The notes beneath the pieces were generated by a model. It worked only from the letters and a program-made list of their open reading frames with translations, did not search any database and was not told the origin of the DNA. Below, one piece after another: positions 41,251 through 48,726 of a DNA stretch of 64,000 nt; the stretch's first letter is position 1, and every line of letters starts with the position of its first letter. A program made the translations under genes and the position numbers. The stretch spans positions 32,001 through 96,000 of the forward strand of contig JAWOEX010000010.1 of NCBI GenBank assembly GCA_046482545.1, written 5' to 3'. The DNA is from Candidatus Thorarchaeota archaeon (GTDB taxonomy: Archaea > Asgardarchaeota > Thorarchaeia > Thorarchaeales > Thorarchaeaceae).

Positions 41251-41459
41251 AATTGGATCACCTTAGGAATAGGTCAAATCATTTCTTAGAAATATCCATT
41301 ATCTCTCTTTAACTTGAACGGATATCGACGGAGCATATTAAGCAATTCCATCGTCAAAAGCATTCGATTAGAACTGATGAGCTGAACAATGCTGAAACCT
41401 TTTGCAACATCAGGGTTAAACATTTATGTCGAAAACGCAATCGCGTCTTGGAGCTTCAA

Positions 41460-42572
41460 ATGCCTGAAGGAGTCTTTGTCGTCCGCTTGGACAAGATGAG
41501 CGGCTTTCTTGTAGAAAAGAAATACCCTTCATCATTGAGATTGAATGAAAAGCTTCTGAATCTCATCTATTATGAACATGAAACAGGAAAGAGGGAACAG
41601 ATGAAATTTTTCGAATCGGAGGGTAAGAGGTTTGGTTCGTTCACTCACACATCCCACCCAGCATATTTTGTTTGTTTTGTGCTTAATCCAGAAGAGAAAC
41701 CCGAGATAATTCGGGATCAATTCATCGGTATGGGGAGATTAATTATCCAACTTGCTATAGAATCTCCAGACAAACTGTACTTGGGACAGATACTAGAAAA
41801 GGGCAGCGTGTTACCGAAGCGATCCGATGAACAGATTTTCACGGATATATTTACAACTCCCTCTACAGCACTGCTACTTGAAAGACTGGAAAAGGAAGGA
41901 CTGGAAAAGGCGGCCGCACTTTCACTGTGGTTAAAGAATCAGATAAGAAGTGAAGATATGGATTTGCGTGAGACTGTCAAACCCCTCATGAAATCAGGGG
42001 CGGTAGAAGTTAAGATGGTTGGAAAGGCTTCCGAAATGGTCTTTCTCATCAAAGATGTATTCGCTCACAGGGCGCCTCCGGTTAAAGCACTACTACATGT
42101 AGAAAAACAAGAAAAGGAAATCGCGCAGAAATATAGGGAAGAAATCAAGAAATTCTTCTCGCCTGCTGGAGAGGGGGGTTATAACCCTACAATACCCGTG
42201 GAAGACCCGAATTCACCCCTTCTAGAGGATAGACAGAAGATTGCGGAAATAATGTCAGATATTTTTCATTACAGGATAATTGAGGCGCTCAGACAAAAAC
42301 CGCTTACTGCGGCGGAAATAGCTGATGAAACTGCTCTTCCAGACCAAATTGTCGAGGATTCATTATGGACGTTACACGATAATCACATAGCAATTAATAT
42401 TGGAGAAAACATTACGTGGGTACTGCTTTCAGATCCAAGGATTGATTGTTTCCTGCCGGAATTCGTGCTTCCTATTGTAGCAAATAAGGTTAGAAACAAG
42501 AAAGTACAAAGAAGAGCTGCACAGGAGTATCTGAAATCATTGATGCAGAGCTGGAAAGGTGAATGTATTTGA
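41460..42572 (+). CDS. Longin/uDENN-like N-terminal domain plus winged-helix domains protein
   Basis: N-terminus GVFVVRLDKMSGFLVEKKYP resembles the uDENN/longin start (hh.FD...G..h...YP). C-terminal IIEALRQKPLTAAEIADETALP..IVEDSLWTL wHTH. Confidence 0.6.
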   Translation: MPEGVFVVRLDKMSGFLVEKKYPSSLRLNEKLLNLIYYEHETGKREQMKFFESEGKRFGSFTHTSHPAYFVCFVLNPEEKPEIIRDQFIGMGRLIIQLAIESPDKLYLGQILEKGSVLPKRSDEQIFTDIFTTPSTALLLERLEKEGLEKAAALSLWLKNQIRSEDMDLRETVKPLMKSGAVEVKMVGKASEMVFLIKDVFAHRAPPVKALLHVEKQEKEIAQKYREEIKKFFSPAGEGGYNPTIPVEDPNSPLLEDRQKIAEIMSDIFHYRIIEALRQKPLTAAEIADETALPDQIVEDSLWTLHDNHIAINIGENITWVLLSDPRIDCFLPEFVLPIVANKVRNKKVQRRAAQEYLKSLMQSWKGECI

Positions 42573-43438
42573 TACGCGGGGTTTATGTACTGGGAAAGCA
42601 CAACAGCATCCTTCATTCTAAGGAATACGCAGAACCTGTATCAAGAGAGGCTCTTATCGATTTCTTGCTTAATTTGAGCGAGTTTCTTTCTACGCAAAAC
42701 TTGGGAGACCAAATCGAATTTATGAATCTCGCAACTTCTCGGCTCTACTATTCAGTAAATGGAGAATATACGTTTCTTCTCGTAGCAGACAAAGCAGATG
42801 ATATGGAGCAAATAACCAACAAGATTGAGCAGCTGGAAACTGTATTCATGGAAGAATTCAAGCCGTTGATTGAGGCTGGCAGAGCAATTGAAGGCCTTGA
42901 CAACTTCATAGACAGCTTGGCAGTGACCATGGTAAAGGTAGCAATTCTCGGTTTTGCTGGTGTCGGAAAAACAACTACCCTACATCTGCTCCGGGGTGAG
43001 ACACTACCCCTTAAACATGATCCCACAATTGGCGTCACTATCAAGAAGCTGCCTTCAGAAGTTCAAAATGCTAACATAGTTTTGTGGGATTTGGCGGGAC
43101 AATCACGGTTTAGTATACTTTGGGGAAAGATGATTGCAAATGCTCAAGTCGTTGTTATTGTAACCGATAGCACACTTGAGAATGTCCTAAAGAGTAAGAA
43201 ACTAGTCAGCCTTGTGAAAGAGAAGGTGCCTAATGCAAAAATAATTGGTATTGCCAATAAGCAGGACCTCCCAACTGCCCTTACCCCGGACAGAGTTGGC
43301 AAGATACTAGGCGTTCCTACCTATGAGTTGGTAGCAATCGATGTTACCTATCGGGACAGGCTTATCCAAATCATCCGAAAGGGCATTTTGGAAGGAAAAG
43401 CAGAAAGATCCAGTGATGGAGAAGAGACAGACAATTAG
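42563..43438 (+). CDS. Longin-domain / Arf-like small GTPase fusion
   Basis: N-terminal longin-like IRGVYVLG..SILHSKEY..YTFLLVADK. G1 GFAGVGKTT, G2 PTIG, G3 WDLAGQ, G4 ANKQD. Overlaps the upstream gene. Confidence 0.85.
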   Translation: MYLIRGVYVLGKHNSILHSKEYAEPVSREALIDFLLNLSEFLSTQNLGDQIEFMNLATSRLYYSVNGEYTFLLVADKADDMEQITNKIEQLETVFMEEFKPLIEAGRAIEGLDNFIDSLAVTMVKVAILGFAGVGKTTTLHLLRGETLPLKHDPTIGVTIKKLPSEVQNANIVLWDLAGQSRFSILWGKMIANAQVVVIVTDSTLENVLKSKKLVSLVKEKVPNAKIIGIANKQDLPTALTPDRVGKILGVPTYELVAIDVTYRDRLIQIIRKGILEGKAERSSDGEETDN

Positions 43439-43516
43439 ATATAAGACAACAAAGATTAAGAATACTAGAATAAGAACAAACACTAGAGTTACTATTAACT
43501 GAAGGTGGATTATCTG

Positions 43517-44200
43517 ATGGCGTTTGATATCGAAGAGATTATGGAGAAGCTCAAGGCAATCGAGGGTTTTGCCAAGAATGTATCTGAAACCAAAAAGCTA
43601 GCAGACGAGTTAGCCAAGAACTTTGCTAGTATGAAAGAAGCACTAAACAAGACCATGAACGAAAGCTTCACTGAGATTGCCAACCAAATAGATACACTTC
43701 GTAAGAACATGGAGCGTATGGAGGAAATGGGAACGGTGGAAGCAACCACCTCGACAGAGGAGGAAAAAACCTCACCAACTCCGAAGGTACCTGAACCAGA
43801 ACTGGAGCCAGAGCCAACCCCTCAAGAATCGACTATAGAACCACCTGAAGTGGAAGAAGTGGAAGAACCTGAACCCGAAGTACCCCCCGAAGAACCACCT
43901 ATTCCTGAACCCACCGAGGCGGAACAACTGGAAGCAGAAGAACCTACAGTGGAAGAGCCTACGGCGGAGGAGCCTACCGTAGAAGAACCGGCGGAGGAGC
44001 CTACCGTAGAAGAACCGGCGGAGGAAAGTGGAGAACTCGATTTGCTCATCCAACAGCAAGATCAGGTCAAAGCAAAGTTAACCGACCTGCGTTTTGACTA
44101 TATGAGAGGGTATATTCCCGAAGATGAATATAAACAGAAAGAGAGCGAGCTAGATGACAAGCTCGAAGAGTTGGATAGGAAGATTGCTGACTTGAAATAG
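43517..44200 (+). CDS. Coiled-coil, acidic Pro-rich linker, SHOCT-like C-terminal protein
   Basis: Heptad-patterned N-terminus, EP/PTVEE-rich middle, LRFDYMRGYIPEDEYKQK C-terminus. Confidence 0.75.
   Translation: MAFDIEEIMEKLKAIEGFAKNVSETKKLADELAKNFASMKEALNKTMNESFTEIANQIDTLRKNMERMEEMGTVEATTSTEEEKTSPTPKVPEPELEPEPTPQESTIEPPEVEEVEEPEPEVPPEEPPIPEPTEAEQLEAEEPTVEEPTAEEPTVEEPAEEPTVEEPAEESGELDLLIQQQDQVKAKLTDLRFDYMRGYIPEDEYKQKESELDDKLEELDRKIADLK
43937..44025 (+). repeat. Coding tandem repeat (27-bp unit x2.4 plus 15-bp EEPTV variants)
   Basis: CGGCGGAGGAGCCTACCGTAGAAGAAC at 43962-43988 and 43989-44015, partial to 44025. Confidence 0.85.
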
Positions 44201-44293: not shown

Positions 44294-45253
44294 TTATTTC
44301 AGAAGCTTCTTTGCTGCTTTGATTATCCGTTCAGCACCATCGTCGGTTATTCCTTCGACTTTCTTTGCTACTTCTTCTGGTTTAGCATCTGCCAGCTCCT
44401 TTACAGAGTCATAATGTGCCAGAATCAAACGCTTTTCCAGTGTCGGACCAATACCCTTGATATCCGCTATCTCCGGGATTTCCTCACCTTCACCTTCGAT
44501 TTCTCGGATCATCTTCTTTGCTGCATAAATCATATCAGCCGCACCCTTGGAACCAATCCCATCAACCTCATCCGCGATTTGGTCGGGTTCAGCTTCGGAT
44601 ATGGCTTTAACCGAATCAAACCCTGCATTCGTCAAGCCCTCTGCAGTCTTGGGCCCAACACCAGAGATGTCGGTTATCTTAATCTCAGGTTTCTCGGGAG
44701 CAGGAGCCTTCTTTTTCTTCTTTGGTTTGGGCTTCTTCTCTGGCTTCTTCTTTGGCTCTTCTTCCACTTCTTGAACAGCTTCTGGTTCAGGTTTGGCCTT
44801 CTTTTTCTTCGCTTTCTTTTCCCGTGCTTCCCGTTTCTGTCGGGCGGCTCTACCGGGTTTCATGGGAGCACCCTCTGATGCAGCATCAATTGCTGATTCC
44901 ATTTTCTCTGTCATCAGTGGGACATTAGTGATAGTGCTTGCTACGACCTCAATTTGTTCGGGTTTTCCCTCGTTATGCTTCTCCATCTGTTCAGGAGTGG
45001 TATATACACTAACACCACTATCACGAATCAGGGGTACGATATCGTCCGCATCTGCATACTCTCTGAGCATTTTCTTTGCAACGCTTATTCGTATGTTGAA
45101 TTTCGACGCCAAATCATATGGCGTCACCGATTTGGCATTGAGCACATAACTCTTGATATCAGAAACGGTGTCATCTTTTGGGATAGCATCTCTGACTACC
45201 CGCTCTTTCTTCTTTTTTGATCGGCCCCATTTTTTCTTGCTAATTGTAAACAC
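44294..45253 (-). CDS. rps25e: Ribosomal protein eS25 fused to a Lys-rich linker and two tandem (HhH)2 domains
   Basis: KKKWG..K..VTPYDLASKFNIRISVAKKMLRE...I....SVYT matches eS25. C-terminal ISGVGPKTAE.L..AGFDSV..I..A..DGIG and IKGIGP..L..YDSV..LA.A..EGI. Confidence 0.8.
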   Translation of the reverse strand: MFTISKKKWGRSKKKKERVVRDAIPKDDTVSDIKSYVLNAKSVTPYDLASKFNIRISVAKKMLREYADADDIVPLIRDSGVSVYTTPEQMEKHNEGKPEQIEVVASTITNVPLMTEKMESAIDAASEGAPMKPGRAARQKREAREKKAKKKKAKPEPEAVQEVEEEPKKKPEKKPKPKKKKKAPAPEKPEIKITDISGVGPKTAEGLTNAGFDSVKAISEAEPDQIADEVDGIGSKGAADMIYAAKKMIREIEGEGEEIPEIADIKGIGPTLEKRLILAHYDSVKELADAKPEEVAKKVEGITDDGAERIIKAAKKLLK

Positions 45254-45393
45254 TCTCCTAGATTATTTGCTGAGGCCCCAGTATCATACTAGGCCCTCTC
45301 CTTGAGGTCATCGCGAACCGTCATTTTCCAACTTAAAAACGTGCGCATCTGGAACAGCGTGAATGGTCGTAAGGAACGCTGGTCCTAGCAGTT

Positions 45394-48153: not shown

Positions 48154-48726
48154 TCAGGCCCATCTAGCCTTGTCTTCATCTTCCTCTTGCTTTTCCCTTA
48201 CTTCCTGTTCCAGCTGTGAACGGCTTTGCTCAGGATCGAGATTGTCCCATTGTGGGGGCTTCTTTTCAACTTCTTCTTTCTCATACTCTTGAGAGGGTAC
48301 TGGTTTCTCCTCTCCCTCGTCGGGTCCATGGGCGTCATAGGAATCGTCGTCGGTTTCTTCTTCCTCCTCGTAAGGATATTCTTCATATTCCTCTTCCTCG
48401 TAGGAACGCTCCTCAAATTCTTCTTCTTTTTCTGCTTCTGGTTCCTCCGCCTCATAGAACTCGCGTTCCTTCTCGCATTCTTCTTCGGTATCTATCTCTT
48501 CATAGGAATACTCTTCAGATTCCTTCTCTTCTTCACTATCTTCGTCCTCTCCCTCGAACTCAATTTCCTCTGCAATCGGGATTTTTCCGGATTCGATTTT
48601 TTCAAGAAGTAGATTGAACATCCGTTCGATTACGGTAGCTTTCCCCTTCGCTTCGAATTCCAGCGAGCCCAGCTCGAATTCGAACTCTATTTGTTCATCC
48701 TTTTTCTTCGCCTCTTTACGCACCAT
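48154..48726 (-). CDS. Highly acidic, Tyr-interspersed low-complexity protein with a small N-terminal domain
   Basis: Beta-beta-alpha-like N-terminus (IEFEFELGSLEFEAKG..VIERMF), then a Glu-rich tail. Confidence 0.7.
   Translation of the reverse strand: MVRKEAKKKDEQIEFEFELGSLEFEAKGKATVIERMFNLLLEKIESGKIPIAEEIEFEGEDEDSEEEKESEEYSYEEIDTEEECEKEREFYEAEEPEAEKEEEFEERSYEEEEYEEYPYEEEEETDDDSYDAHGPDEGEEKPVPSQEYEKEEVEKKPPQWDNLDPEQSRSQLEQEVREKQEEDEDKARWA

Follow-up and report, generated by a model that had tools for sequence, protein, structure and literature searches.

Tethered (HhH)2 domains on haloarchaeal eL32 and histone H1-like tails on insect ribosomal proteins are already known. The long form of haloarchaeal eL32 (NCBIfam NF009401/PRK12766; PDB 1JJ2_X, 1S72_Y, 9L94_Q) is a solvent-side protein of the large subunit that carries one acidic, RadA-N-like (HhH)2 unit at its N-terminus on a flexible linker. 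The H1-like extensions of insect RpL23a and RpS6 and the Lys-rich tails of bacterial bL21 are Lys/Ala/Pro-rich and disordered (PMC11764897, PMC6821194), and Lys-rich low-complexity regions function in non-specific DNA binding (PMC6821194). It has been reported that the GhG motif binds the sugar-phosphate backbone, and that DNA binding by the (HhH)2 repeats of Topoisomerase V is non-specific for sequence, salt-tolerant and scales with the number of units (PMC8313265). Canonical eS25 (PF03297; PDB 9E71_BW, 9FHL_c) is a single-copy protein with a basic N-tail and a winged-helix core.

In this study, we found that the eS25 of Thorarchaeota (Asgard archaea) is two to three times the normal length and that in many genera it ends in one or two helix-hairpin-helix (HhH) domains of a DNA-binding type. 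The protein shares its N-tail, core, fold and single copy with canonical eS25 but has about 230 extra residues and a probable AUU start, and it lacks the N-terminal Gly-Gly of Saccharolobus eS25. As in haloarchaeal eL32, an intact ribosomal core bears a related unit on a disordered linker, and the units of the two proteins match at E about 1e-6. Unlike eL32, however, eS25 belongs to the small subunit, and its 0-2 units are C-terminal, preceded by a conserved block and a lysine-rich tether. The insect and bL21 tails are of independent origin. In Thorarchaeota, the tail comes after the conserved block, and folded HhH units can cap it or take its place.

The window, a 64,000-nucleotide stretch of Thorarchaeote DNA, contains the eS25 ORF at 44294-45253 (-), which is open for 319 codons when read from GTG (Table 1). 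The earlier note had identified the N-terminus as eS25, and this was confirmed by both sequence and structure. Pfam Ribosomal_S25 (PF03297) matched aa 6-85 with 48.5 bits against a gathering cut-off of 28.8 (E 1.1e-12), and the core of the AlphaFold model superposed on archaeal and eukaryotic ribosomal eS25 chains at about 2.2 A over 61 residues in Foldseek, where about 25 of the top 50 matches were ribosomal eS25 chains. The NCBIfam S25e subfamily models matched at E 1e-9, below their clade-specific cut-offs. A generic wHTH was rejected for this region, as no HTH Pfam family matched and the MarR matches had an rmsd of 13-17 A compared with 2.2 A for eS25. HHH_5 (PF14520) was matched as well (E 1.4e-22, in two stretches), with 50.1 and 42.7 bits for the two units against a cut-off of 27. 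In the AlphaFold model, the core was confident at aa 21-90, both HhH domains had pLDDT 85-93 with 4-5 helices each, and aa 154-187 were disordered with pLDDT <50.

Table 1. Features of the eS25 locus in the window (positions of the whole stretch)
Feature	Position	Strand	Details
eS25 gene, long form	44294..45244	(-)	316 aa from the probable ATT; 319 aa if GTG 45253
Shine-Dalgarno AGGAG	45255..45259	(-)	10 nt before ATT, 1 nt before GTG 45253
Probable near-cognate start ATT	45242..45244	(-)	from homologous codons and AGGAG spacing
eS25 basic N-tail and winged-helix core	44999..45238	(-)	aa 6-85; Pfam PF03297, fold match 9e71_BW and other eS25 chains
Thorarchaeote-specific conserved block	44780..44998	(-)	aa 86-158; amphipathic helices, then a basic helix starting KP(S/G)(K/R)
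Disordered Lys/Pro/Glu linker	44681..44779	(-)	aa 159-191
(HhH)2 domain 1	44513..44680	(-)	aa 192-247; both GhG hairpins intact; net charge -4; HHH_5 match 44513-44677
(HhH)2 domain 2	44306..44473	(-)	aa 261-316; hairpin 1 intact, hairpin 2 partly degenerate

This eS25 is the only profile match in a 3.05 Mb genome that is 98.9% complete, with no short paralogue, as the earlier note had asked to be checked. The relatives also have one eS25 match above cut-off per genome, and all are long within the Thorarchaeote family. The eS25-HhH fusion is genuine. The two-HhH architecture recurs on contigs obtained independently from NCBI, JGI and Logan, as well as in the two congeneric genomes. A misassembly or a sequencing artefact, the latter named in the earlier note as a refuting outcome, was rejected on these grounds. 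A search for related loci using the short eS25 core as query gave no match.

The approximately 100 aa between the core and the HhH pair had been described as a Lys/Pro linker. This holds for about 35-45 of some 105 residues, which are low-complexity Lys/Pro/Glu; the remainder is a conserved block. The former linker is thus two things, because the conserved block precedes a Lys/Ala/Pro/Thr/Glu tail, and the HhH pair is the variable part. The helices of the block, which has about 70-80 aa, were predicted at pLDDT 50-72, and its dN/dS was 0.02-0.2. Among 1.84 billion proteins, it was present only in Thorarchaeote-type eS25. It matched no Pfam family and nothing in the Atlas, and its best PDB sequence match (E 0.044) was not convincing.

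The long eS25 is constant in the family, which was taken to be Thorarchaeota from the names of its homologues, and the HhH units are optional. The open frame has 237-353 codons in all family genomes with an untruncated gene, 85-157 in about 95 genomes of other Asgard families, and 182, with a short Lys/Thr tail, in the sole genome of the sister family. Among 20 complete eS25 genes, five have two HhH units, seven have one and eight have none. The tail after the conserved block varies from 28 to 143 aa across the family and is histone-H1-like in relatives; it averages 106 aa with a net charge of +22 in HhH-less eS25, compared with 62 aa and +8 in HhH-bearing eS25. Several of the homologues are annotated as 'hypothetical', and gene callers miss both the probable conserved non-AUG start and the lineage-specific block of eS25.

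The eS25 start is probably ATT 45244 rather than GTG 45253, judging from the sequence around the two codons. The AGGAG lies at the modal spacing from ATT (10 nt; the mode in this genome is 8-11 nt) but only 1 nt from GTG, and the 16S rRNA end of this genome carries GGATCACCTCC. In all 24 family genomes compared, AGGAG stands 10-13 nt upstream of the codon that precedes S-(K/R)-K-(K/R)-W-G. This codon is ATT in seven genomes, ATC in nine, ATG in three, TTG in three and GTG in two, and several relatives have another in-frame canonical codon 2-3 codons further upstream. ATT and ATC were rejected as general starts in this genome, since they showed no Shine-Dalgarno enrichment (0.063 and 0.043, against 0.048 and 0.061 for internal codons and 0.20 for ATG). 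The radA gene of this genome (G000:C14:36112-37149 (-)) has no ATG, GTG or TTG upstream of its HhH domain, so it would also need a near-cognate start.

The earlier note had assigned the HhH pair to the type of the RadA N-terminus and the NusA acidic repeats. The first assignment holds and extends to Topoisomerase V, and the second does not. The (HhH)2 repeats of Topoisomerase V (E 3.5e-8) and the RadA/Rad51 N-terminal domain were the best PDB sequence matches of the unit, which keeps the GhG loops, followed by haloarchaeal eL32; NusA matched only at E 0.005, and RadA and eL32 were also much closer than NusA. All 17 eS25 units have an invariant G-h-G in hairpin 1 and an invariant G in hairpin 2, and unit 2 of this eS25 keeps the first hairpin and the first G of the second. 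The NusA acidic repeats AR1/AR2 have the same fold and likewise form a tandem C-terminal pair, but the eS25 units reached only 32.9 bits with TIGR01954, under its cut-off of 48.15, and their first-hairpin GhG is intact. No conserved surface was kept beyond GhG and core residues. The dN/dS of the eS25 units was 0.04-0.15 in divergent pairs, as low as that of the ribosomal core, and the units are under purifying selection. The Topoisomerase V and RadA units serve DNA enzymes, whereas the eS25 unit hangs from a ribosomal protein.

The module is widespread in this genome. HHH_5 had 30 matches here, 12-31 in family members and 2-11 in other Asgard families. A local profile placed the unit on eS25 (two), eL32 (three), Top6A (seven), Rpo6, and RadA and its paralogues. 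It was also present on two HEAT-repeat proteins (G000:C20:132577-133953 (+) and C23:16600-17232 (-)), on a 2,400-aa surface protein, in its cytoplasmic tail (G000:C22:186192-193400 (+)), on a multi-pass membrane protein (G000:C9:83623-85230 (-)) and on an unknown helical protein (G000:C9:61704-62780 (-)). Only two ribosomal proteins carry it in this genome, eS25 and eL32, one per subunit. The three units of eL32 (G000:C34:30288-31439 (-), L062) are spaced by poly-Lys; family-wide, eL32 has 0-4 units, with 1-4 in 19/24 genomes; the remaining five have long lysine repeats instead, which parallels HhH-less eS25. In another Asgard family, one eL32 (L057, genome G030) has a C-terminal stretch weakly resembling HhH (15 bits) that seems to have been added independently. 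Top6A, the Spo11 homologue (G000:C14:40869-43727 (-)), has 953 aa with seven N-terminal (HhH)2 units, and both congeners have 951-aa frames with the same seven-unit array. Rpo6 bears one N-terminal (HhH)2 in 20/20 family genomes (here G000:C42:30408-31145 (-), L046), whose fold recalls the bacterial alpha C-terminal domain. The Rpo6 units form one clade in the domain tree (100/99), and a 'helix-loop-helix' of Rpo6 has been mentioned (PMC13257274).

The units of eS25 and eL32 were intermixed in the domain tree, which rests on 56 columns, with sisters from the same genus such as G008/G023 (99/95). Strong branches forced at least five changes between the eS25 and eL32 hosts, and a single origin of the eS25 units was rejected (AU p=1.4e-4, 56 columns). 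Unit 1 of this eS25 groups with the Top6A units of the same genome (90/90), and unit 2 is most similar, at 52-57% identity, to units on eL32 from the same genus. Between the congeneric G001 and G002 (L020:811-1770 and L022:1471-2430), dS was 0.64 in the core and 0.03-0.17 in the linker and units. This drop suggests a recent recombination of the 3' half of eS25.

We give a probability of about 0.5 to the reading that the eS25 arm is a sequence-non-specific nucleic-acid grip with DNA as its likeliest ligand. The protein would be a working ribosomal eS25, incorporated at full length with its core in the usual archaeal position atop the 30S head. Its arm would have three layers: the conserved block, which probably packs on the 30S head, a floppy lysine-rich tether, and the optional (HhH)2 units. 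Hydrogen bonds from the GhG loops may hold a nucleic-acid backbone, most plausibly that of duplex DNA, so that 30S subunits or ribosomes could be kept near the chromosome and nascent mRNA by avidity, with no defined partner. Lysine repeats and HhH units may be two interchangeable ways of gripping. Because the units interchange with lysine repeats and between host proteins, the ligand would be a generic polyanion rather than a co-evolved protein interface. The earlier note had proposed a flexible arm that tethers the ribosome; the flexibility is borne out by the model at aa 154-187 and a nucleic-acid tether is the best reading, but a specific coupling to RNA polymerase is not upheld.

The HhH form may be favoured in genera with more acidic, and probably more salt-adapted, proteomes, because salt would screen purely electrostatic tails. 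Acid excess tracked the HhH number of eS25 across 14 genera with rho 0.79 on aligned orthologues and 0.68 unadjusted; the values come from 20-40 kb of each genome, taken relative to this genome, and kinship is a confounder (three changes on a poorly resolved tree). The shift is modest, since HhH-bearing genera have about 1.2 acidic residues more per 100 aa, and the correlation hints at salt adaptation. Several points count against a grip on DNA. In this eS25, the two units have net charges of -4 and -1, which makes them neutral to acidic, and the whole extension has about +1. The module also occurs on membrane, surface and HEAT-repeat proteins that have no obvious need for DNA. Furthermore, DNA is spatially separate from ribosomes in Loki- and Heimdallarchaea (PMC8776820; Thorarchaeota were outside that study), which counts against a DNA tether.

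The arm might instead act on RNA in translation, by holding rRNA helices or expansion segments, capturing mRNA near the exit channel or bridging ribosomes in polysomes or storage, and have no DNA role. This is unlikely, yet it has several points in its favour: eS25 is located on the head, close to the E site, and its eukaryotic form binds structured IRES RNAs (PMC9932298, PMC11698992), Asgard rRNAs have large expansion segments (PMC12993045), the conserved basic helix resembles an rRNA-binding extension, and just two ribosomal proteins here bear the unit, one in each subunit. However, the closest characterised homologues of the unit bind DNA, Top6A, RadA and Rpo6 have the unit in common, and a fixed rRNA site would not predict 0-2 units on tethers of 28-143 aa. 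The abundance of the module, with 30 HHH_5 matches against 2-11 in other Asgard families, its presence on membrane and HEAT proteins, its varying copy number and exchange between hosts, and the occurrence of acidic units in acidic proteomes would suit folded tags that aid solubility or prevent aggregation, or else tolerated passengers of a recombination-spread module, in which the fold and not a ligand is selected. We consider this improbable, as the surface GhG residues are invariant, dN/dS in the units is as low as in the core, and tripling an abundant protein is costly. Free eS25, with its winged helix, H1-like tail and HhH units, could also moonlight outside the ribosome as a regulator or nucleoid-associated protein whose supply is tuned by the near-cognate start. 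The parallel H1-like extensions on insect RpL23a and RpS6 (PMC11764897), the dispensability of eS25 in yeast and the conservation of an ATT/ATC start in a genome that does not use such starts generally agree with such a role. It is nevertheless improbable as well: the genome has one eS25, whose ribosomal core is intact, a free pool would be limited rather than raised by a weak start codon, and eL32 bears the same HhH decoration.

The NusA-like arm coupling the ribosome to RNA polymerase, one form of the tether proposed in the earlier note, fared worst. Here the HhH pair would bind protein, possibly through an HhH-HhH contact with the Rpo6 unit, and we regard this as the least probable reading of all. 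The constancy of the Rpo6 unit as one clade in the family is in line with it, as is the top Foldseek match, NusA in an E. coli coupling complex (E 3e-4, though with TM 0.19 and rmsd 14 A). The use of a NusA extension for coupling in Mycoplasma and the still unresolved archaeal coupling factors (PMC8116511) also count in its favour. The predicted complex of eS25 unit 1 with the Rpo6 unit scored 0.00 and was counted neither for nor against a contact. However, eS25 sits on the exit side of the ribosome, and the docking sites of known expressomes are uS10 and the mRNA entry side. The eS25 unit is absent in 8/20 genomes, in which the Rpo6 unit is constant. The eS25 units are not one clade, show no surface conservation apart from GhG and core residues, have been exchanged with eL32 units and recur on unrelated proteins, and NusA is a far weaker sequence match than Topoisomerase V or RadA. 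Overall, the findings agree better with an interchangeable grip on nucleic acid that lacks specificity than with an arm dedicated to RNA-polymerase coupling.

A broader version of the DNA grip seems doubtful. One DNA-gripping module on eS25, eL32, Rpo6, topoisomerase VI and membrane proteins would keep transcription, translation and membrane anchoring together at the chromosome with no need for dedicated coupling factors, with the unit number tuned by salinity and the eS25 supply set by the conserved AUU/AUC start. If so, DNA and ribosomes would co-localise in Thorarchaeota, unlike in Loki- and Heimdallarchaea.

A literature search, with most subscription journals outside its coverage, found no paper on eS25 or eL32 together with HhH. 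What is new here is eS25 as host, the family-specific block, the alternation of Lys repeats and HhH, and the probable conserved AUU/AUC start. HhH units were added to many different ribosomal proteins in unrelated lineages. The Thorarchaeote family is a natural series with zero, one or two units on eS25, 0-4 on eL32 and lysine repeats as the alternative; because it comes in small, expressible domains, the ligand question is directly testable. The eS25 arm is also relevant to the question of a physical coupling between transcription and translation in Asgard archaea, and earlier work on archaeal coupling (PMC8116511) and on the separation of DNA and ribosomes in other Asgards (PMC8776820) gives the finding a testable context.

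The neighbours of eS25 encode a nucleotidyltransferase, AlaX and an Arf-like GTPase; they are partly conserved but rearranged and give no hint to function. An extremely acidic, Glu/Tyr-rich ORF of 190 aa with no Pfam match lies at 48154-48726 (-) of the window. A convergent cluster at 41448-44200 (+) encodes a 374-aa protein with a C-terminal HTH and a longin-like plus Arf-like GTPase (PF00025). It also encodes a coiled-coil protein of 231 aa that bears an acidic EEP repeat and weakly resembles CdvA/GvpG. The synteny of this cluster with eS25 is partly kept in two related loci (L131 and L132).
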